Assembly (NCBI GenBank): GCA_963800645.1
Contig: CAWDBX010000003.1
Location: forward strand, 4,178-68,177
Direction of reading: 5' to 3'
Source of the DNA: an uncultured Bacteroidales bacterium
GTDB taxonomy: Bacteria; Bacteroidota; Bacteroidia; Bacteroidales; UBA10428
Length of the DNA stretch: 64,000 bases
This document shows positions 6,991 to 64,000 of this stretch, piece by piece. The position numbers and the translations under genes were made by a program. Below the pieces are notes generated by a model. The model was not told the DNA's origin. It saw only the letters and a list, made by a program, of their open reading frames with translations, and ran no database searches. Each line of letters begins with the position of its first letter. Position 1 is the stretch's first letter.

Positions 6991-7004
6991 GATTAATAAA
7001 TTTA

Positions 7005-7071: not shown

Positions 7072-7185
7072 CAAAAAGGACAGTTATGTCAGCCAAGCAA
7101 CACCTAAGCAATGTTATACTGTACTAATGAAACAAATACCCTTGTCATTTAATTCTTTAGTGTCGAGTATAAGTCCTGGGGGGAT

Positions 7186-7487: not shown

Positions 7488-7522
7488 GGCTGGCGGAAAG
7501 AGGGAATGGAATCATCCCCTGA

Positions 7523-9109: not shown

Positions 9110-9181
9110 AAATAATTCAATATGCCTGGATGTTTTGCAGTAAAAGTTAATTCCTTAGTTAATTGAGGCTTAATTGAAGGA

Positions 9182-9471: not shown

Positions 9472-9617
9472 GATAAGAGATATGCCAATTTAAATCGAAA
9501 ATTGATCAGGATGCAAAAATCCTTTTGATTAGCGATCAATGATAATAATTAATTTTTAATGACTCGCATGATTATTGAATTTTATATAGGTTTGCAGACA
9601 AACTATAAATTACACTG

Positions 9618-11027
9618 ATGGTGAAGGATAAAAATGGAAAGAAGAAAACCAGAAACAGGTACAAAGAATTTCATCATCTTCATACGTTATCATTGACCAT
9701 TTTTATTGGTATTCCACTTTTCTTTCCTAATTATCAGGCCCAGAAAGAGCGGTATGAGCATGGGTGAGGTACTTCAACGAAAAATGAACAGAACCAGTGA
9801 CTACAGATTCACTTCCGGAGGACAATTACATGGACAAATCTGGTTGGGGAAAAGATCGATTTTCTGGTATCCCAGCCTATCGGACAGACATTTACGGAAC
9901 CACCCATGATTTCTAATCTGGCGGTGGCAGATCTGGATGGTGATGGCCTCCTGGATATTATTGCCTGTGACACCAAAAACAATTTTGTTTCATGGATAAG
10001 GCAATATCCTGCCGGGACCTATACCGAAAAGATTCTGGCGGATGACTTGCTGGCGCCTGCCCATGCACAGGTCATTGATTTTGATAAAGATGGCGATAAT
10101 GATATTATGATTGCCGTGCTCGGGATGCTGTTTCCGTCCAATGACAAAATCGGTTCCGTGGTTATCCTGGAAAATACCGGGAAGAATCATTTCAGGAAAC
10201 ATGTGGTGGTGGAGAAAATTGCCCGTGTTTCGGATGTCAGGGCAGGTGATCTGGACGGTGACGGAGATATGGATCTTGCTGTTGCCCAGTTTGGTTATGA
10301 TGACGGGGAAACCCGGTGGATTGAAAACCTTGGTAACTGGAATTTTAAGAGTCATATTCTCCAGAATCTTTCGGGTCCTATTAATGTTGAAAATATTGAT
10401 ATTGATAACGATGGCGATCTGGATATCATATCCCTTGTGAGCCAGGAATGGGAAGAAATCTACTGCTTTATAAATGACGGCAAGGCGAATTTTCAGCTCA
10501 GGCTGCTGTGGGGATCCAGTAATGAAGACTTTGGTTCCAGCGGATTTATATGTATGATCTTAACCAGGATGGTAAAATGGACATTCTTTACACCAACGGT
10601 GATGCATTTGATTATATCCCGCCCCAGGGTCGACCCTGGCATGGCGTCCAGTGGCTTGAGAATAAAGGAAACCTGAATTTTGAGTTCCACCGGATCGTGT
10701 AATTTTATCGGTGCCTACAGCGTGCGTCCTGTTGATATTGATAATGACGGTGATCTTGATCTTTTTGCGGTAAGCGCATTTAATCTCTGGGAGAAACCCG
10801 AATCCCAAAGTTTTATCTGGCTTGAGAATACCGGCAACATGCAATTCAAGAAACACGACATTGCAAATTCACCCACCCATCTGGTTACTCTTGAATTGGG
10901 TGACTTCAATAATGATGGACTAATGGATTTCGTTACAGGAGGGATGCATGCATATCCCCCCTATGACCGCATGAGCAGGATAACATTGTGGATGAACAAC
11001 GGAATACTGCCCGCGGCAAAAAAATAA
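9618..11027 (+). CDS. FG-GAP/VCBS repeat protein (frame breaks near 9700-9900 and 10560-10680)
   Basis: Repeated Ca-binding-type motifs DLDGDGLLDII, DFDKDGDNDIM, DLDGDGDMDLAV, DIDNDGDLDII, DIDNDGDLDLF and GDFNNDGLMDFV in ORFs 9906..10676 and 10680..11027. N-terminal TM in the 9618 frame. Confidence 0.7.
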
Positions 11028-11078
11028 TGTTATCAGCATTCATAAGGCAACAGGAACCAAATCAAATCTCAGATAAGA

Positions 11079-11735
11079 ATGAAATTCAGCATTGCAAAAT
11101 TATTCACGGTAACCTTGCTATTGTTGGCATTGCTCAGTTGCAAACCCACTGTAAAAGATGTGGACGGCAATAAATACAAAACCGTGACCATTGGCACACA
11201 GGTATGGATGGCAGAGAATCTGAAAACCACCCGGTACAATGATGGAACACCCATACCCCTGGTTACCGATTATGAGGAATGGGCGGCATTGACCACACCT
11301 GCGTACTGCTGGTACAATAACGATAGTTCACACAAGGAAGTGTATGGCGCTTTGTACAACTGGTATGCCGTGAATACGGCCAAAATATGCCCGGAAGGCT
11401 GGCACGTACCTTCCGATGAAGAATGGATAGAATTGAGAAACTATCTGGGAAGTTTCAGATTTGTGGGCAGTGATCTGAAAGAAACAGGCACAAGCCACTG
11501 GAAAAGTCCCAATGCGGATGCCACCAATAAAAGCGGTTTTACGGCCCTTCCGGGAGGCCTCCGCAGTTTCAACGGCTCATTCAGCTACATTGGGATCGCC
11601 GGTTACTGGTGGACCTCTTCAGAGTACACCTCTACCAATGTGCATTTCTGGAACCTCCGGTACAAAAACAGTGATTTCTTCACTTATATCGCCGAAAAGC
11701 CCAATGGACTTTGTATCCGCTGTATTCAGGATTAA
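11079..11735 (+). CDS. FISUMP (Fibrobacter succinogenes major paralogous) domain lipoprotein
   Basis: Lipobox LALLSC. DGNKYKTVTIGTQVWMAENL, YGALYNWY, CPEGWHVPSDEEW, GFTALPGG and IRCIQD are the hallmark blocks of this domain. Confidence 0.85.
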   Translation: MKFSIAKLFTVTLLLLALLSCKPTVKDVDGNKYKTVTIGTQVWMAENLKTTRYNDGTPIPLVTDYEEWAALTTPAYCWYNNDSSHKEVYGALYNWYAVNTAKICPEGWHVPSDEEWIELRNYLGSFRFVGSDLKETGTSHWKSPNADATNKSGFTALPGGLRSFNGSFSYIGIAGYWWTSSEYTSTNVHFWNLRYKNSDFFTYIAEKPNGLCIRCIQD

Positions 11736-12526: not shown

Positions 12527-13039
12527 TTAGTGCGAGGACCATTTTACCAGAAAATTCCCAAACCGGTACACCAGGTCCGGGAATAATCCTTTGTGCAGGT
12601 CATGCGCTTCCTTCTTTCCCGAAAATCCCCTCGCAAAGCCCGGTCCGAAGATCTCCGTACCCAGTGCCAGGATCTTTTTTTCCCCTTCTTTCCCGATACG
12701 TTTCCTGAAATGGCTGAAGTCGCTGAAATAGAACGGCGCTTTATGCTGAAAATACACCTCCCCGCAGAAGTACTGCCAGTAGGGATTCTCGGTCCAGTGC
12801 GCCAATGCACTTTTATCGCTGTGCCTGTATACCTGCCGGAGCATGAGGAGACCTACCATGGTGCGGATGGGTACGGAAGGAGCCCCTTTCTGACTATAGT
12901 AACCGGCGAATTCCTTTTCAACTTGTAACCAGTCGGTATTCCTGACCCTTTTGCACAGATCGTGCCCGGGATCAATGAAATGAATCAGGGGAACCTCGGC
13001 AATATTCAGCTGCGGATTCCTGTCGGTTTTACCCAGCAT
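12527..13039 (-). mobile_element. IS5-family transposase N-terminal remnant (DDE catalytic part missing)
   Basis: PSVPIRTMVGLLMLRQVYRHSDKSALAHWTENPYWQYFCGEVYFQHKAPFYFSDFSHFRKRIGKEG matches the InsH-type N-terminal transposase domain. The ORF ends after ~170 aa against the DUF1080 gene. Confidence 0.7.
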
Positions 13040-13194
13040 AAAATTATGGGTTTAAAACAAATTTAACATTTTTTCCGACGTAAACCATAGAAAATCATCC
13101 GGAAACATATTGTCCCGGAGCGCACAATTACCGAACCTGATATTGGATATAAGCGTATAAATATTACTTTTAACGTTTCAAATTGATTATTGGC

Positions 13195-15214
13195 ATGAGA
13201 CAGGTCCTTCTTCTTGCATGTTGCTGGATTTTCTTCCCCGGGCCGGCAGCTGCCCAGTCATTTTCCAACAGCAACCTGCCCATCGTGGTCATCAATACCG
13301 ACGGAGGATCACCCATCGTTGATGATCCACGGGTACTGGCAACCATGAAAATCATTTACAGGGGGCCCGGCCAACGAAATTATTTAACCGATCAGAACAA
13401 TCCTGCTTACCTCGATTATGACGGAAGGATCGAAATTGAGATCCGGGGATCCTCCTCGCAGTACACCGAAAAGAAGCAATACGGCTTTTCTACTTTGCAG
13501 GCTGATAATGTCACCAATAACAATGTAAGCTTGCTGGGCCTGCCAGGTGAACACGACTGGATATACAACAGCATGACCTTTGATCCGGCGTTGATCCGTG
13601 ATTATCTTTCGTTACAACCTGGCACGGAAAACAGGGAACTATGCCACCCGAACAGTGTATTGTGAATTGGTCATCAATGGTGTTCATGCGGGCCTCTACC
13701 TGCTCCAGGAAAAGATCAAGGCTGACGACGACAGGGTGAACATTGTGAAGATCACACCCACCGACAATGTTGCACCTGCAGTAACCGGTGGTTTTATCAC
13801 CAAAGCGGATAAAACTACGGGAGGTGATCCGGTGGCCTGGACCATGTTTTCGCGTCTTGATGCAGATGTAAACTACATTCACGATCTGCCCGATCCCGAA
13901 AATGCCACTATGGCGCAGACCAATTATATAAAAAGTCAGTTTCAGCTGCTCGAATCCAACACCGACAACAACAGCCTGGCAAACGGTTTTCCATCGGTCA
14001 TTGATGTGCCCTCGTTTGTGGACTTCCTCCTGGTTAACGAACTGTCATCCAATGCCGACGCTTATCAGTACAGTACCTATTTCCACAAGGACAGGAATGG
14101 GAAATTAAAAGCCGGTCCGATCTGGGATCACGACCTGACCTATGGAAACGATCTGTTTTTCTGGGGATTTGACAGGAGCAAAACCAATGTCTGGCAGTTC
14201 TCCAACGAGGATAATGAGGGATCCAGATTCTGGTATGATCTGTTTAACAATTCCACTTTCAGGTGTTATGCCTCGAGAAGGTGGAACGAACTTACCCAGC
14301 CGGGACAACCCTTTAACCCGGACGAGCTGGAAGCCTTTATCGATCTTACCGTGGCTGAAATCAGCGAGGGTGCGGCCAGGGATTATACCCGCTGGGCAAC
14401 ATCGGGGAACCACCAGCAGCACATCAACAACATCAAATCCTGGCTCAATACCCGGATCAGCTGGATAACCTCCTACCTGGGTCCCTATGCGGATTGCGCC
14501 AACGTAAGCGTTCCCCCGCTGGTGATCACCAAAATCATGTACCATCCCGATTCCACCACTGAGTTTCCCGACAATGAACTGGAATTCATTGAGATCACCA
14601 ACAACAGCAATCAGACCGTCAACCTGACGGGAGTATATTTCAGAAGCACCGATCCGGTTTACCAGTTCCCGGTTGGGACCAACCTGGGTCCGTACACCTC
14701 CTACTATATTGCCAGCAATGTGCTGGCCTTCCAGTCACATTACGGCAGCGTTCCCATGGGAGAGTATTCCAGGCATCTTTCCAACGAAGACCAGAACCTG
14801 ATTCTGGCTGACGGCTTCGGCAACATCATCGATTTCGTCCGGTATCAGGACAGCATCCCGTGGCCCGATGCCGACGGCAACGGATATTATCTGCAACTGA
14901 TCAACCCCGGTATGGATAACAGTCTTGCCACCAGCTGGACGGCCTCCAATGACGTCATCCTGTCGGACCGGAACCTGTCTGAGGAAATGAATTTGCGGTT
15001 ATATCCGAATCCGGTCAGGGACATCCTGAGTATCCAGGTGGGAAGTAAGATCGTTTCGCTTCATTTGACGGATATGCAGGGTCGTCTGCTGGTGAACGTC
15101 GCCGTGAATGATGAGTTTTATGAGTTCGACATGAGCCGTTTCCACAGAGGTGCCTATGTCCTCAGGATCATCACGGCCGACAGAACCTATACGGCCAAGA
15201 TCATCAGGGAATAA
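13195..15214 (+). CDS. CotH family protein with lamin-tail-like domain and T9SS C-terminal sorting domain (one frame break near 13600-13660)
   Basis: NLPIVVINTDGG, YCELVINGVHAGLYLLQEKIK and YFHKDRNGKLKAGPIWDHDLTYGN (CotH). LEFIEITNNSNQTVNLTGVYF (LTD). LRLYPNPVRDILSIQV...YTAKIIRE (Por/T9SS CTD). Confidence 0.85.
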
Positions 15215-53194: not shown

Positions 53195-54732
53195 ATGAAA
53201 AAGACATTACAAATCAATATTGGCGGCCGTCATTTTCATATCGATGAAGATGGATACAGCAAACTTAACCATTATCTTGATTCCCTCAAATCTCATTTTT
53301 CCGCAGAAGGGTGAATCGGGAAAGGAGATCGTGGAGGATATTGAACAACGGATTGCCGAATTGCTGGAAAACAGGATCACACCGGTAAAACAAGCCATTT
53401 CACTTGGAGGATGTGCAGGAAATCATTGGCATTCTTGGGCAAGGTAGAGGATTTCGTGTATAACGGCACAGCTGGATGAAGAATCGAAGCAGGATCATGA
53501 CGGACCGCAGGGATAAGCGCCGGTTTTTCCGCGACAGCGAAAGGGGATACCTGGGAGGTGTTTCTGCCGGCCTGGGAGAGTATTTCAATATTGATCCCCT
53601 GTGGATCAGACTGGCCTTTATGGCCTTTATGTTTCTCAAAGGGCTTGGGTCTTCTTATTTATGTCATTCTCTGGATCGTTGTGCCCAAAGCACGCACCAC
53701 GGCTGAAAAGCTTCAGATGAAGGGCATGCCGGTAAACCTTTCGACCATCAAGGAATCGGTGAATGCCGAATACGATAAGGTCAGATCCAGTTTTGAAGGC
53801 ATCGACAAATCCTCCGCAGCAGAAAAGACCCGAAGTGCCTTGAAAATATCATGAGGGCCGATGGGTCTGGTTTATTGTCGCCATTTTCAAATTCCTTATC
53901 GCGGCCATCGGCATATTCGTTCCTGGTCATTGGTTCCATTTTTCTTGCGGTCCTGATCATGATATTGCTTGGATTTTCCAATGTTTTAGGCCATCTCCAG
54001 ATCTGGAACGGGATCAACCTGCCGGATTTCTCCCATCTGTTTGCTTCCTCGGGACACTATTATCTTTTGTTATTTCCTTTGTCATCTGGTATTGATCCCG
54101 ATCGTGGCATTATCTACGGCGGCATAAAGATCCTTTTCAATATCAAAACGAAACACCCATGCTCAGGGCTTTTGTGCTCACCGCATGGATCCTGGACCTG
54201 ATCTTAGTTTTAGCCTCATCATCATTAACAGTACAAATTATGCCGTGGGGGCAACGGGTACACAATCGGCCGCAATTCATCAAAACCAAAAAAGAACGCG
54301 TGAATTTATCTGGATGTGCGCGACAACACCGAAAATAAAAAAATAACCAGTGTACAGTGTATTTGACCTACGAATTCAATTACAGTGAACGGGATGAGTC
54401 CTTGTATTCCAAACCTGAACTGGTCATTGAACAATCAGAGGATGACAAAATGGACATGACCGTTGAAAGAGCGCGTAAAAAATGTGGCCATTGAAAAATT
54501 CCCAGCAATATTTCGATCGGATAGAATACCAATGGGAACAAGATGATTCTGTGATTTATCTAAACAAGTACTTTAGCACCGATGGTGAAGATTTCTGGAT
54601 GTTCCCGGAAGTAAACCTCAAATCAAGGTTCCCGAAGGCCAGGTGATCATGATCTCCGAGGAGGTCTGTGATATGCTTGAAACCACCGGCATTACGTTAC
54701 TGCAAGACAGTTTGCTCGGGAAAGAAATGTAA
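53195..54732 (+). CDS. second PspC domain protein, heavily frame-broken
   Basis: MKKTLQINIGGRHFHIDEDGYSKLNHYLDSLKSHF parallels the N terminus of 52216. RRFFRDSERGYLGGVSAGLGEYFNIDPLWIRLAFMAFMF is the PspC domain. IYVILWIVVPKARTTAEKLQM follows. Confidence 0.6.
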
Positions 54733-54844: not shown

Positions 54845-54915
54845 TGTCCGATGGTGTAATGGTAGCACTGCAGATTTTGGTTCTGCCTGTCCAGGTTCGA
54901 ATCCTGGTCGGACAA
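54845..54915 (+). tRNA. tRNA-Gln (anticodon UUG)
   Basis: Hand-folded cloverleaf: acceptor tgtccga/tcggaca, D stem gtgt/gcac, anticodon stem gcaga/tctgc with loop ttTTGgt, and T arm ccagg-ttcgaat-cctgg. 71 nt, no encoded CCA. Confidence 0.9.
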
Positions 54916-54928
54916 CCCTCCCAATAAC

Positions 54929-54953
54929 AAACCCCGCTAATGAGCGGGGTTTG
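54929..54953 (+). terminator. stem-loop after the tRNA
   Basis: aaaccccgct-aatg-agcggggttt (10-bp stem), then tgtcattatt. Confidence 0.55.
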
Positions 54954-55081
54954 TCATTATTTATTCCTTCGACATTCGTTTTTGTTGCGCATCCATGGCA
55001 GTCGCATGGCCAATTTCACGGTATTTTTAATTACCGGTAACAGAAACAAAGCTTGGTAGATATAATAAAGTCAATAAAAAT

Positions 55082-55116
55082 CCGCCACCAGAAATGGCTT
55101 ATACACGTTGGCGGCA
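55082..55116 (-). other. degenerate attC-like remnant at the tRNA-proximal end of the array
   Basis: The plus strand ccgccaccagaaatggcttATACACGTTggcggc shares the ATACAC-GTT arm with the sites at 55578-55703 and 58098-58120. Only a short ccgcca/tggcgg stem remains. Confidence 0.3.
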
Positions 55117-55154
55117 GTATTATTAGTAATTTATCTTTTTACTTATTAGATGCT

Positions 55155-55558
55155 TTAAAGATTGATTGAAACAAAAAGAAAAATTAGAATTATACCTATT
55201 AGAAATGATGTGACTTGAATGATTTCAGCAAATATTCTATATCTGTTTATCTTTTTAGGGAATAAACCTTCGTCCTTTTCCTTTCTGTAGGAGATGTAAA
55301 ATCTATCCCATGATTTCATATGGAAAATACCCCCAATCAAAGAAACTATAAGATTTGCCACCAACTTAAGATTATAATTATTTTATATTCCGAGTTCTCA
55401 ATGTCTTTAACCAGATCACTCATAAAAGCGATTGATACCACAAAAATCCCCGCACTCAATGACATTAAATGCTTTATATATTCAATTCTATAGCTATTAG
55501 CTAATCCAACATCATAGTGAATGTCTTCAAGTGTTCTTTTTTCTGTTATTTTATCCAT
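55155..55558 (-). CDS. hypothetical membrane protein (two fragments, one frame break)
   Basis: ORFs 55346..55558 and 55155..55364 overlap end to start and both contain TM helices. Confidence 0.4.
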
Positions 55559-55577
55559 ATATTTATTTTAATATTGG

Positions 55578-55703
55578 CGTTAACGTCCGCGTGTATGAGC
55601 CGTTGCGTGATCAGGGCGCTATATTATCGAGGTAGCACAAGGTAATTAAAATAGCTGACTTGGCAAACCCACGACCAGCAATGGCTTATACACGCTGTTA
55701 GGC
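55578..55703 (-). other. attC-like imperfect palindrome (126 bp)
   Basis: The plus-strand arms cgttAAC-gtcc-GCGTGTATGAGCC and GGCTTATACACGC-t-GTTaggc are complementary, apart from a 3-nt bulge and one mismatch. In gene orientation it reads GCCTAAC...GTTAACG, which fits RYYYAAC at the 5' core. Confidence 0.55.
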
Positions 55704-55731
55704 AACGTAATTTACTAATAATATTTCTCAA

Positions 55732-56313
55732 TTATATTTTTGTAATAACCAAGAAGCCTTCAGCCATGCCATCTCTAAATACTACGCCCTTATTTTTGTT
55801 AACGTCTTTAGGGTCTCTAAATGAAATTGCACACAAATAAGAATCATCCTTAAATCGACAAAATATTCCATCAATTTTTGTAATTGGTTCTCCCTTTGGA
55901 ACGATTACTAACGTAGATCCTCGTAAAATCTTAGATAGATATTTTTTGCAGTTCTCAATAGAAATGGGAGGACAGATATCTTCACAAGTAATTCGTGTAA
56001 ATAATGAACCATATCGAAAACCTCTTGCCAAATCTGATTCACCATATATTTCAGGATTTTCATTAAAAGCAGTAGCAATTATCTCAGCATCAGCATCGGA
56101 ATAAATTAATCGAGCTACTTGATAATTCTCATTTGCTGATTTAGTGAAGTAATACTCTGCCTCGGAGTTTTTTAATAAAAAACGGAGTTTTTTCAATAAT
56201 TCATAAGCCATCCCGGTTTTTTTAGGCTTTGAAGAATAATGAATGAAAAGCGCAACAATTGATCCAATTATTACGCCCCCTATTCCACCGAATATGACAT
56301 TTAGCCAATCCAT
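55732..56313 (-). CDS. hypothetical protein with an N-terminal TM helix
   Basis: Intact 193-aa ORF (MDWLNVIFGGIGGVIIGSIVALFI...). No motif recognised. Confidence 0.55.
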   Translation of the reverse strand: MDWLNVIFGGIGGVIIGSIVALFIHYSSKPKKTGMAYELLKKLRFLLKNSEAEYYFTKSANENYQVARLIYSDADAEIIATAFNENPEIYGESDLARGFRYGSLFTRITCEDICPPISIENCKKYLSKILRGSTLVIVPKGEPITKIDGIFCRFKDDSYLCAISFRDPKDVNKNKGVVFRDGMAEGFLVITKI

Positions 56314-56375
56314 TTAATTATGATTTTATTTGATTCAAGTTAACTAAAATTTTATCATAGTTTCAATATTATGTT

Positions 56376-56613
56376 GCCTAACACGCTCACAGAAGCGGGT
56401 CTTCCGCTTCTATGCATCTAAACTTGGGGGCATAAAAGCAGTTATTCTGGTTTTTACTGACTGTTATATTTCTCACTGGGCAAAGCTGGACTCGTACTCG
56501 AAAAATAGTCTAATTCTCAAACAATTCCAAATATTTGAAGTGTCTGGGTTTTCTAATCGTCTTTTAGTATTCAGCAAGGCAGTGCGACCTAAGCAACTTG
56601 AAGCAAAAGGCAG
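56376..56613 (-). repeat. conserved non-coding element R, copy A
   Basis: Aligns almost base for base with 57860-58097 and 60367-60574, and in part with 62311-62435. In gene orientation it ends ..gagcgtGTTAGGC, 63 nt before the ATG at 56313. Confidence 0.85.
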
Positions 56614-56900
56614 GGAGGAATTGGATCATCTGCTTTCTACAGACCGAGTTTCTTTCGCCTGGCCTACTTTTCAGCTTTTGCCTATTTCTGATCTGTAGCG
56701 TACTCTTTGTCATGCCAGGAAAACCATTCTTTTAAGGAAGGTAAGGTGATATCACAATTTTCAATTATTAATTTCCCCAGGATTCTCCCCTACCGATCAG
56801 GTCCATGGCTTTTTAAATCCCGAGAACAACCACCAACGGCACCTTTCCTGGTAATCCATTTTATGAAAGTCATTGGTATGGTTTTTAGTTTTTTTGCGCG

Positions 56901-56966
56901 ACAAAACGTCCGTGGGTATAGCCTGTCCCGACAAGTCGGGACAGGTTATACAACCGGGCGTTGTGT
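56901..56966 (-). other. attC-like imperfect palindrome (66 bp), 11 nt downstream of the stop codon of ORF 56978..57637
   Basis: The plus strand acaaAAC-gtcc-GTGGGTATAGCCTGTCCCGAC-aa-GTCGGGACAGGTTATACAACCGGGC-GTTgtgt is palindromic over almost its whole length. Confidence 0.55.
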
Positions 56967-56977
56967 GTGGTTCAAAA

Positions 56978-57637
56978 TCATTTTCCAAAATATTGTCCAA
57001 GTAAAAACGCGCCACTTATCATTCCTGTTAGGGCAACAAGAATTGCCCAAAATTGAGATGGTTTTAAACCTTTAACAAGTTCTCCAATAGTTAATGTAGA
57101 AGGATCGATATTTTTAGCATTCAATGCGGCAATTTGTTTATTGTATTGATAGTCTTCAACTTTTTTCTTCCAACTAGAAAGAACACCATTAAATTCAGGA
57201 GTATATAAAGAAGAATTATCTAGCTTGACCCTTAATATATACCAATCATGACCTTGTTCAATTAATCCCTCATTTTTTAATCCTTCTTCAATGATAAGCA
57301 TTATGGGCAGTCCTTTAGAATATGCCATTGCTGCCTCAATTTGATTCCAAGGCGTAGGAAACTTTACATCGCTTAATGTGGATTCCAGAGCGCCTCCTCT
57401 TTTTTCTATCCCCGTTGGAAAATATGTTCTTTCCAAGGCAATTATAATGGTGCCTGAACACCCATCCAGCAACTCTACAATAGTCTTAAGAGGTGAGTCA
57501 CAACTAAACTTGTTTCGACCTACTGTGTTGGGTATTAAATTTTCGCTTTTTAATCTTAATTCGATAGCACTTACAAAGGACTCTTGCTTTTCATTTGCTG
57601 TACCTCCAACACTAATAAATATATTATGTTCTTTCAT
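56978..57637 (-). CDS. TIR-like / nucleoside 2-deoxyribosyltransferase-like Rossmannoid domain protein with a C-terminal TM anchor (family call tentative)
   Basis: From the ATG at 57637: IFISVGG, GTIIIALERTY, TPWNQIEAAMAYSKGLPIMLIIEEG, and the C-terminal helix FWAILVALTGMISGAFLLGQYF. The ORF-track start at 57724 is a TTG. Confidence 0.5.
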   Translation of the reverse strand: MKEHNIFISVGGTANEKQESFVSAIELRLKSENLIPNTVGRNKFSCDSPLKTIVELLDGCSGTIIIALERTYFPTGIEKRGGALESTLSDVKFPTPWNQIEAAMAYSKGLPIMLIIEEGLKNEGLIEQGHDWYILRVKLDNSSLYTPEFNGVLSSWKKKVEDYQYNKQIAALNAKNIDPSTLTIGELVKGLKPSQFWAILVALTGMISGAFLLGQYFGK

Positions 57638-57859
57638 ATTAGGATTATATAAGGGTTCTCTATAACAAAGTAAATTTTTAATCTTTTCTCTATTGTTTTG
57701 TGAATGATCTAATTCCAAGAGCAATTCTAATAATCGACAAATACTAATTTTAATAAACTGTTGAAAAGCATTTAATCAAATCTATCATTTCTATCCATAT
57801 TTGCTTAAGTAAAAATTATGCTAGTTAGATGAGTTAGTATCTTGGATGTAATCAATCAC

Positions 57860-58120
57860 ATACAACACGCTCCTAGAATCGGGTCTTCCGCTTCTATGCA
57901 TCCAAACTTGGGGGCATAAAAGCAGTTATTCTGGTTTTTACTGACTGTTGTTTTTCTCACTGGGTAAAGCTGGACTCGTACTCGAAAAATAGTCTAATTC
58001 TCAAAGAATTCCAAATATTTGAAGTGTCTGAGTTATCTAATTGTATTTTAGTATTCAGCAAGGTAGTGCGACCTGAGCAACTTGAAGCAAAAGGCAGTTG
58101 GCGTATACACGCTGTTGTGA
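57860..58120 (-). repeat. conserved non-coding element R, copy B, joined to a half attC-like arm (58098-58120)
   Basis: The same consensus as copy A up to gaagcaaaaggcag, then ttggcgtATACACGCTGTTgtga, which matches the right arm of the 55578-55703 site. Confidence 0.85.
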
Positions 58121-58268
58121 ATGATTTTTGAATCAACCAGATGAACCTCGATAATAAGCACAGTCATAATTCAAAGCTAGCCATGCTGGGGTTAGTTGGA
58201 CACACTGCTGAGCGTAAATGTCAGGCAATATTAAATGAGCAATCTTATCCATGTCGGGATACAATGCG

Positions 58269-59363
58269 TCAATTATTCCTGGCAAGTTCACGTACAATTG
58301 AATTAAACTTTTCAACTTCTTCCATATTTGGACTGTGCGCAGATTGTTCAAAGATAAAGAACTCCTTTGCAGGTGCTTTCAATTGGTTAAAAAAATCTTT
58401 AGCAACTGGATAAGGTGTCTGGTAATCATATAAACCCTGAAGAATATAAACAGGAACCTGCATGCTATCAATTTCACTGAAAAGATTAGTATTGATTACC
58501 TCTGGCCATAAGTACTTGACTGAAAATTCACTGCCTTTCAAGTAGTCGATTTTTTCCTTCATTGTATATTCATGAGTAAGAAAAATCATTTTAACCAAGG
58601 GCAATATTCCCTTCATTTCATGAGTTGCGCCACCACCAAACTTCATAACGTAATTTCTCTCAATAGCAAGGAATTCATCCCAGTCAGCGTTGCTCGCAAG
58701 TGAATCCGGGAAATTCAGATTAGCCAATTCATTCATGGCCTTTTCATCATGATGTAATTGAGCCTGGTCTTTAGCCCATTCAAATGAAACAAGTTCTCCC
58801 TTATATTGATGTGCTATTTGGCCAATACCAAAATAGGCATGAAAAAGTTCAGGGTATTTATTAGCTGTTAAAATCGCAAGTAGAGACCCCCAAGAATGCC
58901 CCATGATGTAAATCTTGTCTTTTTTGAATCGCTTGATAAGGTATCGGCTAAGTTCACCCGCATCTTTAATAAATTGATTCAAATTCATTGACTCAGATGG
59001 CACATTAGAATGATAGGATTTTCCTGCTCCCCTTTGTTCCCAGTAAACCATTACGAAGTCGTTTTCAATTAATCGGTTTGTTTCTTTCATCATTCCAATT
59101 TCAGGCCCCCCCGGACCCCCATGAACAAACAACATTACTGGTTTAGTTGTATCAGCACCTCGAATGAATACATACTGTTTCAAGCCTCCAATTCGAACTG
59201 TATCGATAACTGAAATGCTGTTTGGGATTGTCTCACCGTTCTTATTTGTTATTGGGTCTGCTTTCCCTGGGCTATTAATCCACCATACTGTTACTAAGCT
59301 CAAGATTAGGAAAAAGAATGCAGAGATTATGTAAAGAATCACCTTTAATACTTTTCTTTTCAT
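58269..59363 (-). CDS. alpha/beta hydrolase (proline-iminopeptidase-like) with an N-terminal anchor
   Basis: Intact 364 aa: LFVHGGPGGP (oxyanion loop) and IMGHSWGS (nucleophile elbow). Confidence 0.8.
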   Translation of the reverse strand: MKRKVLKVILYIISAFFFLILSLVTVWWINSPGKADPITNKNGETIPNSISVIDTVRIGGLKQYVFIRGADTTKPVMLFVHGGPGGPEIGMMKETNRLIENDFVMVYWEQRGAGKSYHSNVPSESMNLNQFIKDAGELSRYLIKRFKKDKIYIMGHSWGSLLAILTANKYPELFHAYFGIGQIAHQYKGELVSFEWAKDQAQLHHDEKAMNELANLNFPDSLASNADWDEFLAIERNYVMKFGGGATHEMKGILPLVKMIFLTHEYTMKEKIDYLKGSEFSVKYLWPEVINTNLFSEIDSMQVPVYILQGLYDYQTPYPVAKDFFNQLKAPAKEFFIFEQSAHSPNMEEVEKFNSIVRELARNN

Positions 59364-59651
59364 GTAGGATAACTATTTCAATGTTTATTCAAACTTATTA
59401 CAAAATAGTCTTGTTTCCAATCCCAAGTCCAAATTAGCTGTGGAAATGGAAATTCTCCGCCATTAGAATTTGTCTGCGGGCTAGTTTCAATTTTTAGTTC
59501 TGATTACTTAATTTGTTACAAACTATAAGCGAACACAAACTTCTCCACCGGTTCAAAACTGTCCGCTGGCACCTTTTTGATTCCAGTTATTTTTTTGTCG
59601 AGTAAAATCTTGTCGGGTTCAATGTTATTGTCCATGAGCCAGCCCAATTAC

Positions 59652-59785
59652 CGCCAACGTTTGCGGGTATTTGGCGTTGCCTGGTTCAGGGCGCATACTT
59701 GTCCGGTTACACCAATGGAACTAAAAAGAACCGATACCCGAAAGAGCACTTCGCCGGCAATGACATATATCCGGTGTTGTAGGCA
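59652..59785 (-). other. attC-like site candidate (134 bp)
   Basis: The plus strand cgccAAC-gttt-GCGGGTATtt ... acATATATCCGGT-GTTgtag has the same arm layout as the other two sites, but with weaker L-box pairing. It lies 90 nt after the stop codon of ORF 59874..60311. Confidence 0.35.
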
Positions 59786-59873
59786 GTGTTTTTCTTTCTT
59801 TAGATTCTTCGTCTGTAATGCAGTTGCGTTAGCCCTGTGTTGTTGCTTTGTAGAGTTTTGTCAATATATTACT

Positions 59874-60311
59874 TCATTGAGTCAATTTGTTCTTTAATTC
59901 AACTGATAAGTTTTCATCTGTCAAAACCATTGTCGCATCTTGGCAATATTGCGTTTTTCCGAGATATTGTTCGTATCCCGATGTCTTAATTGTGGTAAAC
60001 TCTACCCACTCATTATTCTCTTGTGATAGAAATTCACCACATAAAATAAAAATCTTTTCGTTGTTTGGTGATGTTATGTAGCCAATTTTTACTTTACGGA
60101 AATCAATGGGTGCCGGTGGTTGATGATTACGAAAATCAGCAGCAGCCGAAGTAATTAAAAACTGAACAATGGTATCAGGTATGACTTCTTTTTCAGAAGT
60201 TGCTGTTGAACTGTCTTTGGTCTCTGTTTTATTGTTGCAACTCATGATTGCTGACATAAAAAATATGAAAGCAAATATTTTTAGCGTGTTTTTTAAAATT
60301 TGTGTGGTCAT
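59874..60311 (-). CDS. hypothetical lipoprotein
   Basis: Intact ORF with lipobox-like AIMSC after a hydrophobic signal. ATG at 60311 (the ORF-track start at 60323 is a TTG). Confidence 0.55.
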   Translation of the reverse strand: MTTQILKNTLKIFAFIFFMSAIMSCNNKTETKDSSTATSEKEVIPDTIVQFLITSAAADFRNHQPPAPIDFRKVKIGYITSPNNEKIFILCGEFLSQENNEWVEFTTIKTSGYEQYLGKTQYCQDATMVLTDENLSVELKNKLTQ

Positions 60312-60366
60312 TTTTTTATACAATTAATTCTTTTTTCCTGTCGTTTTGAGTGGTCTCTAGCATTGC

Positions 60367-60574
60367 CTGCAACACGCTCCTAGAAGCGGATCTTCCGCTT
60401 CTATGCATCCAAACTTGGGGGCATAAAAGCAGTTTTTCTTGTTTTTACTGACTGTTATTTTTCTCACTGGCAAAGCTGGACTCGTACTCGAAAAATAGTC
60501 TAATTCCCAAAGAATTCCAAATATTTGAAGTGTCTAAGTTTTCTAATAGTCTTTTAGTATTCAGTAAGGTAGTA
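60367..60574 (-). repeat. conserved non-coding element R, copy C
   Basis: The consensus as above. Its upstream edge touches the methyltransferase stop codon (60575-60577). In gene orientation it ends ..gagcgtGTTGCAG. Confidence 0.85.
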
Positions 60575-61414
60575 TTATTTTTGTGATACATAAAAAGTCA
60601 CATTTTCTCCATTCCAATAATCATCACTTTCTGGTAATACATTTTCGTAATTCCTAATATGGGTAAAACCCTTTGATTCAAGAATCCTGGTCAAATCATT
60701 TTTTTCATAATAATGACTCCAAAAAATGTATGAATCAACCGTATCATTATCTCCAACTACCGTGTGATGCTCCACAAGTACCTTGGCTTCCGGATAATGG
60801 TATCCGTTTGTCAGAACAATATAGGGTGTGTTTTTCCAAAATCCACTTTTTTGTACTTCCCAGGATGGTGACATAATTTTCTTATCCAGGTTTCTTTCGT
60901 TTACCACATCACAGATAAATAATCCATCTTTCTTTAATGCTTTATAAATGTTTTCTAGAACCTTATCCCTTTCATCCGGCACCAGGACACAAAAATCCAG
61001 ATAAATCAAGATGACCAGATCAAATTGATTTTCAAAGTCCAAATCCAAATAATCTTTATTGAGATACTCAATGTTTAGTTGATTTAGTTTTGCATGTTGG
61101 ATTGCGTATTGAATCGAATTTTCAGAAATGTCAACACCAATTACCGAATGTCCCTTTTTTGCAAGTAATTCTGCATAAAGTCCCGGCCCACAACCTAAAT
61201 CAAGAATTCTCATGTTAGGTTTATTGGCCCTTTCTACAATCCAATTTGAAATATTTTCAATTTTTGATTTACTTCTGCTTGCTACATCATGGTCCGGGTT
61301 CGTATGTAATGCTAATAATTGTTTCGATAGGTATGGGTCTGTCCACATAACCGATGAACCTTTTTCATACAATTCAGGCTTGTCCGATAGCTTTTTTATT
61401 AATTCAATATCCAT
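60575..61414 (-). CDS. class I SAM-dependent methyltransferase
   Basis: Intact 279 aa: ILDLGCGPGLYAELLAKKGHSVIGVDIS (motif I and post I) and LKKDGLFI. Confidence 0.85.
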   Translation of the reverse strand: MDIELIKKLSDKPELYEKGSSVMWTDPYLSKQLLALHTNPDHDVASRSKSKIENISNWIVERANKPNMRILDLGCGPGLYAELLAKKGHSVIGVDISENSIQYAIQHAKLNQLNIEYLNKDYLDLDFENQFDLVILIYLDFCVLVPDERDKVLENIYKALKKDGLFICDVVNERNLDKKIMSPSWEVQKSGFWKNTPYIVLTNGYHYPEAKVLVEHHTVVGDNDTVDSYIFWSHYYEKNDLTRILESKGFTHIRNYENVLPESDDYWNGENVTFYVSQK

Positions 61415-61612
61415 GGTATGGTTAGGTAATTGGTTTTCTATGCTGGCAGCAAAGACGGTGGCAATATTAAAAGTTGGGGGGTTCGGAGCGATTCGCTATT
61501 AAGATACACAGACCTTGATGCGAGCTACAACTCCTTGAATAATCTATTAAATCCCAATTTTTTATATTGCGTGTTAGCAACCGTGCTTTATTGATTTTTC
61601 CAGGCTTTTACT

Positions 61613-62266
61613 TTAATTGTATCGATCTAATTGTTTATTTTTTACCATTTTAACCGTTTCGATCGCAAGAGTAATTAAACTAATGAGAATCCAAACTGAC
61701 AATATCAAAGTTGCGAGTAGGCTGAAAGAGAAGTCAATATCAAACTGAAATTGTTGCTGTTGGAATTTCCATTCTTGATCTTCCTTTACCATTATTCCAG
61801 TTAAACGCAAAGGAATGACCAGAAATTTTGACAGATCAAATTTAACATAGCCTTTAGTCGAGAACCATGCAGTATTTCCCAATGATGAAATGTTTGCACT
61901 ATCAACTTCAAATTTGCAATCACCCCAAGATTCCCAATCTGTTTCTACTAATCTGGTTGCATTTTCATAGCCACTGTATATTTCATTAGGCATTGTCCCA
62001 AGAATCAGTATATTTTCTCTGGAATAAAGTGATTGCATAAAAGTGTCAATGTTCTTTGGATCACGTTTAGAATAACCATCCTGAAACTTTTGTAATTGAC
62101 AAATTATTTCCATTCTTGTACTATCAGGGGCATTGCCCTTAGAAAAAGTAGATTTTACCGGGAATAAAATTGTTTTCTCATCAGCCCTTTTAAATACCCT
62201 GGTTACAAGAAAAAGAACAAGGAGCAGCAATACTATTCTTAAAAAAATTCTAAGCATGACTTTCAT
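61613..62266 (-). CDS. membrane-anchored protein with a possible NTF2/SnoaL-like domain
   Basis: Intact 217 aa with N- and C-terminal TM helices. The central part (FQDGYSKRDPKNIDTFMQSLY...AWFSTKGYVKF...GIMVKEDQEWKF) resembles the NTF2-like fold pattern. Tentative. Confidence 0.45.
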   Translation of the reverse strand: MKVMLRIFLRIVLLLLVLFLVTRVFKRADEKTILFPVKSTFSKGNAPDSTRMEIICQLQKFQDGYSKRDPKNIDTFMQSLYSRENILILGTMPNEIYSGYENATRLVETDWESWGDCKFEVDSANISSLGNTAWFSTKGYVKFDLSKFLVIPLRLTGIMVKEDQEWKFQQQQFQFDIDFSFSLLATLILSVWILISLITLAIETVKMVKNKQLDRYN

Positions 62267-62310
62267 ATGATCATTTTATTTTACTGATAGCTGGCAAAGG
62301 GAACTATTTA

Positions 62311-62435
62311 GCATTGTTGCTGACAATCATAGAAGCGGGTCTTCCGCATCTATGCATCTAAACCTGGGCGCACAAAAACAGTTATTCTGGTGTTTACTGA
62401 CTGGCATTTTTCTCACTGGTAAAGCTGAAGCAGTA
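62311..62435 (-). repeat. conserved non-coding element R, copy D (shorter, more diverged)
   Basis: Matches the gene-proximal ~110 nt of copies A-C (catagaagcgggtcttccgcatctatgcatctaaacctgggcgcacaaaaacagttattctggtgtttactgactgg...ttctcactggtaaagctg). It abuts the stop codon at 62436. Confidence 0.75.
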
Positions 62436-62678
62436 CTATCGGGGTTCATTACTTTTGCCATCCTGCAGTTTTTCATTTATTTCATTTAATTTCTTTAATA
62501 TTTCCTTGTTTGAACTTCTATTTGCAGCACCCATTAGAATTATTTTAACAGAGACCAATAAAACCCCAGCTTCAAGCAATAAATCTTTTGTAAAACCAGT
62601 TGCAAAAAGTGCTATAATAAAAAGAATAAACGTTAATGCAATGGTAATCGCGTTGCCTAAGTCCATGTTTCTTATCAT
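62436..62678 (-). CDS. small two-TM hypothetical protein
   Basis: 80-aa ORF: AITIALTFILFIIALFATGF and LLEAGVLLVSVKIILMGA. Confidence 0.4.
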   Translation of the reverse strand: MIRNMDLGNAITIALTFILFIIALFATGFTKDLLLEAGVLLVSVKIILMGAANRSSNKEILKKLNEINEKLQDGKSNEPR

Positions 62679-62739
62679 TTAAGTAATTCTTATATTGTAC
62701 ACTAAAAAATAAATTTCTTTAAAAAATATGAGTTATTTA

Positions 62740-64000
62740 TTATGATGTTTTAAAAAATTTTCGCCTAATCCATTTCTCAAAACCTATAATGATCAGAATT
62801 GAGAAAGCGACACAAGCTGATAAGCCCCAGGCATCAAAATATAAAGGAGACGATTTAAATACCTGGTTCATAAAGGGAAGATAAACAAAGGAAACCTGAA
62901 CGAGTAATACTGTTGCTATTCCCAGGTATATCGAAGGATTGGAAAACAGTCCTATATTACTGGCGGAGTATTTTAAAGACCGGCATTCGATAAGATAAAA
63001 CACCTGGAATAAAACCATAGCAGTTACAGCCATTGTTTGTGCTTCCGAAAGAGCCAGTGCTGTATCCGTTCCCCTGGCAAGTTCAATATTGTATTCCCAA
63101 AGAAACAGGCCAATGGTTCCACCTGCCATTATAATGGATACCAATATGATCCGGAAAGTGACGAAGGGCGTAAATATCGATTTGCCGGGTATTCTTGGAG
63201 GGCGTTTCATGATATCAGGCTCCATTGATTCCATTGCCAGGGGAAGTGCAAGCGCAACAGCTGTGATAAGGTTAATCCATAAAACCTGAACCGGTAACAT
63301 TGGAAGGAGTACAATCCCATCTTTTGAAGGGAAAAACAACACCGCTAAAAATACGACCAACCCTAAACCTATACTGGTAGGCAAAAGAAATATAATGGAT
63401 TTTAAAAGGTTGTCGAATACTCTGCGTCCTTCTTCAACAGCGGCTTCAATACTCTCAAAGTTATCATTAACCAAAACCATGTCGGCAGCTTCCTTGGCCA
63501 CGGCAGTACCTGTAATACCCATTGCAACCCCTATATCTGCGCGCTTTAAAGCAGGTGCATCATTTACGCCATCGCCGGTCATGGCAACAACTTCTCCATG
63601 CGCCTGCAATGCCTAACAATATTCAGCTTGTCTTCGGGCGATACCCGTGCGATAATGTTTGTGTTTCTAATCGCTTCCGACAACTGTTCAGGACTCATCA
63701 GTTGAAGGTCTCTTCCCGTTAGAACCTGACCGGCATTTTTGAATCCAAGCTCAGTGGCTATAATCGAAGCAGTTGCAGGATGGTCACCCGTGATCATTTT
63801 TACGGTTATACCTGCATTATGACATGTCTCAATGGCCTTTTTAACTTCACTTCGCGGAGGGTCGCTCATGGCCTGAATTCCAATAAAATCGAAATGGCAA
63901 AGATCTTCATCGGTAATAAGGCCGGCATGTTCGCCAGGCAACCATTTGGAGGCTATCGCTAAAACCCTCATCCCGGTTTCAGCAAGTTGTATCACCTCAC
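62740..64000 (-). CDS. P-type cation-transporting ATPase (P2-type, Ca2+/Mg2+-like), C-terminal part; 5' end beyond the window, one frame break near 63600
   Basis: [39 protein letters not shown] (hinge motif), [14 protein letters not shown] and C-terminal TM helices, in fragments 63579..63995 and 62740..63609. Confidence 0.88.

Follow-up and report, generated by a model that had tools for sequence, protein, structure and literature searches.

A candidate gene-cassette array on the integron plan beside tRNA-Gln in an uncultured Bacteroidales genome

Positions 54960-62437 of the window (the whole 64-kb stretch of DNA that was analyzed, from an uncultured Bacteroidales genome) form a 7.5-kb AT-rich block adjoining tRNA-Gln, in which imperfect palindromes of a single family, ending in AAC...GTT, lie between co-oriented, unrelated ORFs. 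We interpret this block, with a probability of about 0.75, as belonging to a sedentary gene-cassette array on the chromosome that follows the integron plan, of which it would be the distal part. The palindromes constitute a repeat family with a common orientation and one-per-gene placement, and they exhibit stem covariation, strand-specific G.T pairs, a junction rule and confinement to arrays; the cassette content, for its part, has turned over completely between related genomes. The first-pass annotation had read the region as a CALIN-type cluster or the distal end of an array; a cassette array operating by G|TT crossover, integrase-less or distal, is retained here, while its sites proved not to be canonical attC.

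By analogy with integrons, each cassette would comprise one ORF (sometimes several genes) and a 3' imperfect palindrome; the gene-complementary strand would fold into a hairpin and act as a single-stranded substrate, which a tyrosine recombinase would cut within the AAC triplet, whose coding-strand counterpart is G|TT; and cassettes would leave as circles and then re-insert. On this scheme, a resident cassette should begin TTxxxx, complementary to its own xxxxAA box. The recombinase would most likely be a divergent IntI, its gene lying either upstream of the array past position 64000 or at another place in the genome, and the array may be active at present.

A low-G+C block and its genes

The AT-richness claimed in the first-pass annotation was borne out: G+C is 0.31-0.39 over 55000-62750, as against 0.42-0.50 in both flanks. 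tRNA-Gln(TTG) (54845-54917, plus strand; ARAGORN; Rfam tRNA, 62.5 bits) and the terminator hairpin after it (54923-54958, inverted repeat I20) form the distal boundary of the array. On the proximal side, the variable block is bounded by the fourth copy of a 234-nt repeat (below), where homology to relatives stops (62420-62437). The quality of the sequence is supported by a separate short-read contig (L061), which agrees with it at 99.7% identity across 1412 nt including ORF3.

Every long ORF of the block lies on the minus strand, as had been noted, but the earlier count of eight included one ORF outside the variable block (62436-62678) and took two overlapping ORFs for one. The latter, ORF1 (55155-55558, consisting of 55346-55558 and 55155-55364), is probably a single frameshifted gene for a small membrane protein and gave no match in Pfam. 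The cassette ORFs that follow encode functions unrelated to one another: ORF2 (55732-56313; 193 aa, with an N-terminal transmembrane segment) has no family match; ORF3 (56978-57640; 220 aa, with a C-terminal transmembrane segment) belongs to a family scattered over many phyla at 57-70% identity, and its homology in other genomes ends at the ORF borders; ORF4 (58269-59363) is a 364-aa alpha/beta hydrolase (Pfam Hydrolase_4, E=1.3e-16); ORF5 (59874-60323) is a lipoprotein-like protein of 149 aa; ORF6 (60575-61414) is a 279-aa SAM-dependent methyltransferase (Pfam Methyltransf_25, E=7e-23) which also matches the PADLOC mad2 methyltransferase region (E=2e-27); and ORF7 (61613-62266; 217 aa) has a SnoaL-like domain (Pfam SnoaL_3, E=7e-14) and transmembrane ends. 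ORF8 (62436-62678, minus strand), an 80-aa membrane protein, was rejected as a cassette of the variable block because it is conserved beside the ATPase in relatives. The ATPase itself, a P-type cation ATPase, is represented by its C-terminal part (62740-64000, minus strand), with an apparent frameshift near 63600.

The position of the block next to a tRNA gene favors another explanation, namely an ordinary tRNA-linked island of low G+C through which REP-, BIME- or MITE-like repeats, or terminators, have spread, the palindromes having no role in bringing genes together. However, neither a direct repeat of the tRNA 3' end nor an island integrase was found, and together with the evidence on site structure and junctions given below this makes the explanation very improbable.

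Palindromic sites and their strand-specific stems

Read in gene orientation, the sites follow the plan xxxxAAC-AGCGT-(18-bp stem arm)...variable centre...(stem arm)-ACGCGGRC-G|TTxxxx; they span 66-194 bp, with size classes of 126-127, 163 and 193-194 bp. The window holds five sites and one half-site, all on the minus strand. The three palindromes listed in the first-pass annotation are all present (the third ends at 59782 by family alignment, not at 59785), but those at 61450-61579, 58099-58119 and 54993-55116 had been missed. The shared boxes AACGTCCGyGkGTAT and TATACACGCTGTT have no further occurrence in the 64-kb window.

The type A site W1 (55578-55703, 126 bp) reads GCCTAAC-AGCGT-GTATAAGCCATTGC...GCAACGGCTCATAC-ACGCGGAC-G|TTAACG and scores 118 bits with the family model R2. 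W2 (56901-56966), a short 66-bp member belonging to ORF3, and WB (61450-61579), a type B site of 130 bp that follows ORF7 and matches positions 336-459 of the related contig L086 in blastn, were left out of R2 training, and score 16.1 bits (E=0.0085) and 26.9 bits (E=2.3e-5) respectively. W3 (59652-59782), a 131-bp type A variant of the same subtype as L086 5944-6074, carries compensatory changes that contribute to the definition of the stem. The site of the last cassette (ORF1) is a degenerate terminal type A copy (54993-55116) with a weak R2 score (10.8 bits, E=0.15); its 5' arm (55078-55110) shares 85% identity with the W1 arm (direct repeat D13), and its box CGCCAAC complements the R' box GTTGGCG of W3. 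The half-site (58099-58119; TCACAAC-AGCGT-GTATACGCC; D10) is a type A 5' arm fused to copy 2 of the 234-nt repeat. A plus-strand segment (58114-58191) is homologous to a cassette start in L086 (1475-1552; blastn, 85% over 79 nt); this match is plus-to-plus and the remaining ones are all plus-to-minus, so the segment is inverted relative to the window genes.

The stem consists of 18 uninterrupted pairs, with 93% of cells paired and five pairs changed on both sides. Its covariation is 0.158, compared with 0.088 for shuffled alignments (the observed value was reached by 0 of 500 shuffles) and at most 0.061 for slid registers. Two G.U (G.T) pairs, conserved in 11 and 12 of 13 sequences, exist on the non-coding strand only. 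In the mRNA-sense strand they become A.C mismatches, which argues against RNA terminators, even though the sites sit downstream of genes, where terminators do. Moreover, the bottom strand folds more stably in 17 of the 22 sites (mean 1.45 kcal/mol; the same folding method gave -2.0 for 12 real class 1 attCs). On the plus strand, W1 (z = -2.3) and W2 (z = -5.5) fold better than shuffled sequences, while 59652-59785 does not (z = +0.5), although it is a homologue of the other sites.

The layout is not that of attC, whose definition includes extrahelical bases on the L'' arm and a 5-6 nt spacer on each arm (PMC5027507). The first-pass annotation had described a canonical arrangement with 3-4 unpaired bases on one arm; instead, the L'' arm has no extrahelical base, and the R-to-L spacer is asymmetric (4 unpaired bases versus 1), with its longer side on the arm in which the bottom-strand AAC is cleaved (the "wrong" arm). 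The covariance-model test suggested earlier also went against attC: two class 1 attC models were self-built from real class 1 attC sites (of the held-out sites, R1 recovered 3 of 5 and R3, the better model, 4 of 4), and with filters switched off neither matched any of the 22 family sites on either strand at a threshold of E<=5. It is thus unproven that the array belongs to the integron family proper, i.e., that IntI acts on attC here. This rejection counts in favor of the repeat-or-terminator explanation, as do the lack of a recombinase nearby and the presence of unrelated intergenic palindromic repeats on other Bacteroidota contigs (e.g., L078).

Junctions, repeats and turnover of cassettes

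The first-pass annotation had noticed one complementary pair, G|TTAGGC (56382-56376) and GCCTAAC (55703-55697), whose complementarity is exact and which turned out to be a case of a general rule, in the window as well as in the related wetland metagenome contigs L086 and L101: the bases that follow G|TT in a given site are reverse-complementary to the xxxxAAC box of its downstream neighbor. In L086, neighboring boxes agree at 39 of 48 informative positions (permuted mean 20.4; p<1e-5), and the window and L086 pooled give 60/80 against 29.4. A prospective check on four new junctions of L101 scored 4/4 at each (16/16). A self-contained repeat would be expected to carry matched ends of its own, but boxes of the same element match at 22/52 only, which speaks against REP-like elements. 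The rule is the decisive result, and we read it as the scar of cassette insertion by crossover within a split core site, as in integrons.

In the window, the four cassettes that come after a copy of the 234-nt repeat match at 4, 3, 3 and 4 of 4 informative positions: the ORF2 cassette starts TTAGGC, complementing the box GCCTAA of its own site (4/4); repeat copy 2 (R' GTTGTAT) faces the W2 box ACACAAC (3/4); copy 3 (R' GTTGCAG) faces the W3 box CTACAAC (3/4); and the ORF7 cassette with copy 4 obeys the rule at 4/4. Four other window junctions fit poorly (2, 1, 2 and 2 of 4).

This 234-nt direct repeat (type C), absent from the earlier note, has four copies in the block, all on the minus strand. 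Copies 1 (56379-56613) and 2 (57863-58097) are full length and 94% identical; copy 3 (60370-60573) starts at the ORF6 stop codon, without ~32 nt at its 5' end; and copy 4 (62319-62437) starts at the ORF8 stop codon and comprises only the 3' 118 nt, at 82% identity. The 3' end of copy 1 (...GAGCGTG|TTAGGC) provides the ORF2 cassette with its upstream crossover box. The repeat supplies the upstream G|TT box to four cassettes, and a partner box obeying the rule is absent; that it is a duplicated attI-like or hybrid upstream site is a tentative suggestion and the weakest part of our model. Between copy 1 and W2 lies an ORF-free stretch of 287 nt (56614-56900, minus strand) without similarity to the other spacers.

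The related contigs L086, L101 and L092 contribute about 21 more palindrome copies, all in the same direction and each after one gene; by contig, L086 has 13 family sites, L092 one and L101 four more, co-oriented and each behind a plus-strand gene. Similarity among sites within an array is 70-90%. Genome-wide spread of the palindromes, named earlier as an outcome that would favor REP-like elements, was not seen: an R2 scan of 613 kb, including the other 56 kb of the window and about 500 kb from relatives, returned no site outside the arrays. Nor are the genes fixed and syntenic, the other outcome considered then, since relatives lack the block at this locus and the only cassette in common between the window and L086 is a 40% identical paralogue of ORF5. 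Relatives keep the ATPase block without any sites, while in L086 a pair of family sites whose boxes match (G|TTGTAC and GTACAAC) encloses an intact ATPase gene together with ORF8 and two other genes. Some units are large and housekeeping-like: this 5-kb block, with the ATPase and three more genes, and the 2.4-kb gene of a DPP-IV peptidase. Such units weigh against the array model, as do the site-free ATPase block of relatives, the four poorly fitting window junctions, the poor folding of W3, the departures from attC structure and the failure to find an integrase.

Recombinase and relation to known systems

In agreement with the first-pass annotation, a Pfam scan of 81 ORFs and searches of all six frames with IntI1 as query (phmmer, tblastn) revealed no IntI-like recombinase in the 64-kb window. 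The ten ORFs of L086 scanned against Pfam included no integrase, the gene table of a 93-kb JGI contig reaching 10 kb further upstream has no Phage_integrase match, and neither attI nor Pc was identified. Published reports describe integrons in Bacteroidota (PMC8618304, PMC9668308).

IntI being unseen in ~100 kb of linked sequence examined is one of several lines of evidence for an integron-like system with a non-IntI recombinase (e.g., Xer-like or another tyrosine enzyme, or HUH/Y1 acting on hairpins), either a separate invention or a deep offshoot: i) the site geometry is unlike attC (PMC5027507) in every structural detail except the AAC/GTT ends and the hairpin; ii) all 22 sites fall below noise in canonical attC models; iii) units reach 5 kb; iv) the type C element has no integron counterpart. 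On the other hand, the G|TT/AAC crossover, the split-core scar, the direct orientation and the single site 3' of each ORF are integron-specific matches, as are the bottom-strand folding bias and the within-array conservation of sites (as in VCRs), and an integrase is expected to be missed if sampling of a long array has not gone beyond its distal part. We therefore consider a non-IntI system unlikely, though clearly more probable than repeats or terminators without a cassette role, and prefer a sedentary array on the integron plan.

The closest known systems are the sedentary chromosomal integrons (the Vibrio cholerae superintegron with its VCRs; the Xanthomonas and Shewanella arrays), with which the block shares a long array of co-oriented, unrelated and mostly small ORFs, an imperfect palindrome after each ORF that is highly similar within the array and has xxxxAAC...G|TTxxxx ends, the split-core scar, better folding of the bottom strand and cassette turnover among close relatives. 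It differs from them in that IntI, attI and Pc were not identified, in its rejection by class 1 attC models, in the lack of extrahelical bases, the 4x1 asymmetric spacer and the uninterrupted 18-bp stem, in the Bacteroidales host, and in units of 2.4-5 kb with housekeeping-like genes. CALINs (IntegronFinder; PMC9024848) likewise consist of two or more cassette recombination sites, lack a nearby integrase and may be decayed arrays or arrays split by a sequence end, but they are defined by matches to the IntegronFinder attC model, in place of which only two class 1-based stand-ins were applied here, neither recognizing the sites. REP/BIME and MITE palindromes are also imperfect, multicopy and downstream of genes, whereas the present ones are array-confined, in one orientation and once per gene, with terminal boxes that match the neighbor rather than their own partner. 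The pdif (XerC/XerD) modules of Acinetobacter are also discrete gene modules between short recombination sites, exchanged across contexts; pdif, however, is a 28-bp duplex (11-6-11) in alternating orientation, while the sites described here are direct hairpin palindromes of 66-194 bp with an AAC/GTT crossover.

A variable block of co-oriented genes beside the ATPase gene

From tRNA-Gln (54845-54917) to ~62437 the DNA is AT-rich (31-39% G+C, vs 42-50% in the flanks), as the first-pass annotation had noted, and every substantial ORF of this block lies on the minus strand. That annotation had described eight unrelated minus-strand ORFs as the content of the block: their shared orientation and the unrelatedness of their products (an alpha/beta hydrolase, a SAM-dependent methyltransferase, a SnoaL-like protein and four without Pfam match) held, but ORF8 (62436-62678) is not a cassette of the variable block, as it is conserved beside the P-type ATPase gene (62740-64000, minus strand). 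Exact-protein look-ups for ORF2, ORF4, ORF6 and ORF7 found none on record, the block as a whole had no blastn match in plasmids or in phages, and an Rfam scan (gathering thresholds and E<=5) yielded only the tRNA and terminator-like noise in the block.

The C-terminal part of the ATPase retrieved MAGs of uncultured Bacteroidales, Lentimicrobiaceae and "Mariniphaga" at 88-96% amino-acid identity. Homology to the window in these relatives included the ATPase and ORF8 and stopped at 62420-62437, the start of the fourth copy of a 234-nt direct repeat (type C); thus ORF8 is a conserved ATPase neighbour rather than a cassette of the variable block. Downstream of that end point the relatives carried other genes, none of them found in the window, with no tRNA-Gln within 10 kb, and the block was absent at this locus. 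Short reads of another data set (ERR10755939) gave a 1412-nt contig, L061, that was 99.7% identical to window 57918-56507 (~4 differences) and had both its ends inside type C copies; therefore the block sequence is not an artefact of one assembly. The ATPase gene itself is split in two overlapping ORFs (62740-63609 and 63579-63995; overlap region 63579-63640), and the gene upstream of tRNA-Gln (54357-54730) is likewise broken into short frames, which suggests either indel errors of long-read assembly or pseudogenes. Elsewhere in the window (1-52716), one ORF matched a DUF772 transposase domain (E=5e-16) and several stretches of 1.5-2 kb were devoid of any ORF of at least 120 aa.

A search of metagenome contigs with ORF8 led to L092 and to L086, a 16-kb wetland-sediment contig whose ATPase gene shares 89.5% DNA identity with that of the window. 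L086 carried ten copies of the palindrome at window 55578-55703 (type A) and three of that at 61450-61579 (type B), all in the same orientation and each 3' of a plus-strand gene. A contig of the same population reaching 4.8 kb further upstream (L101) added four more sites, so that the array goes on upstream of the ATPase with at least 11 kb of sequenced sites. In this one population co-oriented genes extend over at least 26 kb, with 17 sites in the 20 kb that are readable; the next 10 kb upstream, seen in the gene table (only) of a 93-kb JGI contig, hold mostly co-oriented small genes, three being on the opposite strand. In a classical integron the integrase lies upstream of the cassettes in gene orientation, which in the window means beyond 64000. 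Therefore, since the L086/L101 array extends upstream of the ATPase, where the integrase is expected, the proposal that the window holds the distal end of a sedentary array is the best reading.

In the window, L086 and L101 alike, the co-oriented ORFs usually come one to a cassette with a site directly 3' of each; the gap between stop codon and site is 11-88 nt in the window, and L086 and L101 follow the same pattern. Exceptions were one four-gene unit, units without any ORF, and fused units. The cargo of these related arrays included metallo-beta-lactamase-fold hydrolases, an isochorismatase, a GNAT-like protein, a methyltransferase, TspO, an OmpA-like protein, a DPP-IV peptidase and TfoX, and the arrays of the window and of L086 had no cassette in common, apart from a 40% paralogue of ORF5. 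With the block also missing in the relatives, gene content is not fixed.

The junction scar of the cassettes

In integrons the core site is split by crossover at G|TT; a resident cassette therefore starts TTxxxx, the complement of its own xxxxAA box. One such complementary pair of cassette start and box had been pointed out in the first-pass annotation, and it proved to be a general rule. Each junction was scored at four informative positions. In L086 the box of a site and that of the next site agreed at 39/48 positions (permuted mean 20.4, p<1e-5), while boxes within one element agreed at 22/52; for window and L086 junctions combined the score was 60/80 (permuted mean 29.4). Moreover, the four junctions of L101, found after the rule had been stated, scored 4/4 each, with 7/7 bases matching at three and 6/7 at the fourth. 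Within the window, the cassettes following type C copies (ORF7, ORF5, ORF3 and ORF2) scored 4, 3, 3 and 4 of 4, and the remaining four junctions 2, 1, 2 and 2 of 4. The rule is decisive evidence that the cassettes were assembled by site-specific crossover inside the AAC/GTT boxes. Furthermore, the R' box of site 59652-59782 (GTTGGCG) matched the terminal-site box at 55112 (CGCCAAC), which suggests past reordering.

The rule also reaches the ATPase. In L086 an intact 905-aa P-type ATPase gene, ORF8, a DUF2490-like gene and TspO form a 5-kb unit (6747-11599) with G|TTGTAC at one end and GTACAAC at the other; with these matching boxes it behaves as one very large cassette. Seven relatives with the ATPase block (L001-L007) had the same genes in the unit as L086, with no family sites nearby.

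Two other kinds of element could be weighed against these data. REP, BIME and MITE elements are palindromic too, but they are dispersed genome-wide and have their own matched ends, and the array family has neither: a covariance model of the array's own site family (R2), applied to 613 kb (the window plus 46 loci), found sites confined to the window array, L086 and L092, and the two boxes of one element matched far less (22/52) than those across a junction (39/48). Within these 613 kb the palindromes are thus not dispersed in REP-like fashion, the outcome that the first-pass annotation had named as refuting its integron reading. With filters off, R2 also recovered sites outside its training set at 61450-61579 (26.9 bits) and 56901-56966 (16.1 bits), plus a weak match at the degenerate terminal copy (54993-55116). 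Xer/pdif modules, for their part, use 28-bp duplex sites (11-6-11) in alternating orientation, whereas the array has long hairpin palindromes that are all in direct orientation.

Site structure and its departure from canonical attC

In gene orientation the sites have the consensus xxxxAAC-AGCGT-GTATAAGCCATTGC...centre...GCAACGGCTCATAC-ACGCGGRC-G|TTxxxx, with AAC and GTT kept in 10-11 of 13 aligned sites. Site length ranges from 66 to 194 bp (classes of 126-127, 163 and 193-194 bp, some of 130-133 bp and one 66-bp member), and length together with the AAC/GTT bounds is within what is taken as attC (~57-141 bp, with up to 200 accepted by tools). All three palindromes first reported are present, and the end boxes they share are absent from the rest of the window; as single-stranded DNA those at 55578-55703 and 56901-56966 folded better than shuffled sequence, and better on the plus strand than on the minus strand, but that at 59652-59785 folded no better than shuffled. 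Palindrome 61450-61579 and the degenerate copy at 54993-55116 had been overlooked, as had the type C repeat and a half-site at 58099-58119.

On the strand complementary to the genes, RNAalifold returned an uninterrupted basal stem of 18 bp, with no bulge, in which 93% of cells were paired and both sides had changed at five pairs. The covariation score of the stem was 0.158, vs 0.088 for shuffled alignments (reached in 0 of 500 shuffles) and at most 0.061 in slid registers. Two G.T pairs were conserved in 11/13 and 12/13 sequences; on the gene-sense strand they become A.C mismatches, which argues against a role as mRNA terminator and fits selection of the hairpin on the other DNA strand. Consistently, the bottom strand (complement of the ORF) had the higher stability at 17 of the 22 sites (mean difference -1.45 kcal/mol), and the same folding method gave -2.0 kcal/mol for 12 real class 1 attCs. 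The split-core scar and this bottom-strand folding bias are features that the array sites share with integron attC.

In canonical attC sites the L'' arm has two or three extrahelical bases, and on either arm 5-6 nt of central spacer stay unpaired (PMC5027507). Our reference attCs, class 1 cassette sites from ten plasmid integrons, agreed with this overall layout: they opened with a 7-nt R'' box, a 5-nt spacer and an L'' arm in which one extrahelical base separates 3 bp from at least 5 more, and closed with the L' arm, a spacer of 5-6 nt and the 7-nt R' box. The array sites, in contrast, have no extrahelical base on the L'' arm, and 4 nt are unpaired between R box and stem on one arm vs 1 nt on the other (AAC/GTT boxes to GTAT/ATAC stem, 8 and 5 nt). 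The only additional bases (bottom strand GYCC, top strand GGRC) are found between R box and stem; the arm in question is the one with the bottom strand's cleaved AAC, opposite to that used by canonical attC. Taking the plus strand as "top", with the ORFs inverted, would accommodate the position of these bases; however, such polarity clashes with the folding bias and the G.T pairs and would make every ORF antisense.

The departure was also seen with covariance models from class 1 attC. R1, trained on 14 attC types, recovered 3/5 held-out real attCs, and R3, trained on 24 real sites at their true lengths, recovered 4/4 (aac(3)-I, aadA5, dfrA14 and arr-2). With filters off and on both strands, neither of these models (our own stand-ins) matched a single site of the family at E<=5, whether in the window array, in L086 or in L101. 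The only R1 matches in the window, 7005-7072 and 14242-14271 (13.7 and 16.9 bits), were judged to be chance, the former being GTCTAAC...GTTAAGC around a terminator hairpin and the latter a coding stretch without hairpin. Thus, of the attC layout first claimed, the AAC/GTT-bounded palindromes and the split-core scar stand, while the extrahelical base is missing, the spacer is 4 vs 1 nt and R1 and R3 reject the sites: the array works like an integron cassette array, and its sites are not canonical attC.

Recombinase, type C repeat and cargo

That no intI is visible in the window was borne out: a Pfam scan of 81 window ORFs matched 43 families, and the 25 that were listed included no integrase; IntI1 searches (phmmer and tblastn, all six frames of the 64 kb) had no match with an E-value below 1. 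In L086, which ends short of the array head, Pfam showed no intI among ten ORFs, and the gene table of the 93-kb JGI contig had no integrase domain in the 10 kb further upstream, the head lying still beyond. The enzyme of the array is most likely a divergent IntI. A recombinase outside the IntI family, which would accord with the unusual sites but less readily with the attC-like scar and strand bias, is the less likely alternative.

Integron surveys depend on attC covariance models and IntI profiles that derive largely from Proteobacteria and mobile integrons, and Bacteroidota are a dominant phylum of soils, sediments and guts. We tentatively propose, at a probability of about 0.4, that an uncultured Bacteroidales lineage (wetland, sediment and soil MAGs) keeps large sedentary arrays with structurally distinct sites (a long perfect stem, free of extrahelical bases, and an asymmetric spacer, 4x1, on the arm that is cleaved), perhaps unseen by standard attC models and perhaps served by a very divergent IntI or a non-IntI recombinase, in which multi-gene blocks of up to 5 kb are mobilised and, in one array, the non-palindromic 234-nt element is a repeated attI-like upstream partner. 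If the arrays are integron-like and their sites are missed by the models, cassette gene capture in Bacteroidota would be under-counted, and the structural rules held to define attC (extrahelical bases and a symmetric unpaired spacer) would be narrower than what the recombinases actually use. Bacteroidota integrons are listed in MAG-based reviews (PMC8618304, PMC9668308). The family offers ~27 naturally occurring variants of the site, together with their covariation and a junction scar that is unambiguous; therefore strand choice and site recognition become directly testable once the recombinase is identified.

The type C repeat is non-coding and has four copies in the window (56379-56613, 57863-58097, 60370-60573 and 62319-62437). 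All share the 3' end ...GAGCGTG|TT in gene orientation and are variably shortened at the 5' end, copy 3 beginning at the ORF6 stop codon and copy 4 (the last 118 nt only) at that of ORF8. The G|TT boxes it supplies obey the junction rule, yet the repeat is itself non-palindromic, a behaviour that would resemble attI. Its 5' box showed no junction-rule match, although a 9-bp closing stem is possible within the 3' 95 nt; no frame was both open and conserved among the copies, RNA folding z-scores (-1.4 and +0.9) were not significant, and an exact scan with a 21-base core pattern had 0 matches in genome contigs and 0 in metagenome contigs. Our best guess is that type C may have arisen by duplication of an upstream site, attI-like or hybrid. 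The half-site at 58099-58119, the 5' arm of a type A site, is joined to copy 2. Adjoining this half-site, window 58114-58191 (plus strand) is homologous to a cassette start in L086 (1475-1552, plus strand), the common sequence being G|TTGTGA ATGATTTTT...ATG, yet it is inverted relative to the window genes and may be a trace of a wrong-strand or inversion event.

PADLOC detected no defence system in the window cassettes, its sole match being ORF6 (60575-61414) to the mad2 methyltransferase region (E=2e-27). A 281-aa MBL-fold cassette protein at 2253-3098 of L100 (the same contig as L086) had a weak precomputed Pfam match to the anti-Pycsar Apyc1 family. Either match could bear on defence or counter-defence cargo. 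Five tandem copies of ~126 nt (L086 13539-14149) lie inside a 456-aa ORF of the array (13032-14402), indicating a putative repeat-domain protein.

The surroundings of ORF3 homologues in other genomes (L047, L072, L076 and L078) had no family sites. In Thiosocius teredinicola (L076 3697-15592; CP019936) the homologue is one of a series of small ORFs, the majority sharing one orientation and having no known function, with intergenic fragments resembling canonical attC arms (ACCTAAC AAAGC GTTCAATCC; ...GCTGGGC GTTAGGC); R1 had no match in this stretch, which may be a decayed integron array of a different kind from that of the window. The Bacteroidota contigs L078 (1640-2050) and L047 (5320-5410 and 6500-6540) have their own, unrelated intergenic palindromic repeats, e.g., GGTGCGGATTTGAAATCCGCACC in L078.
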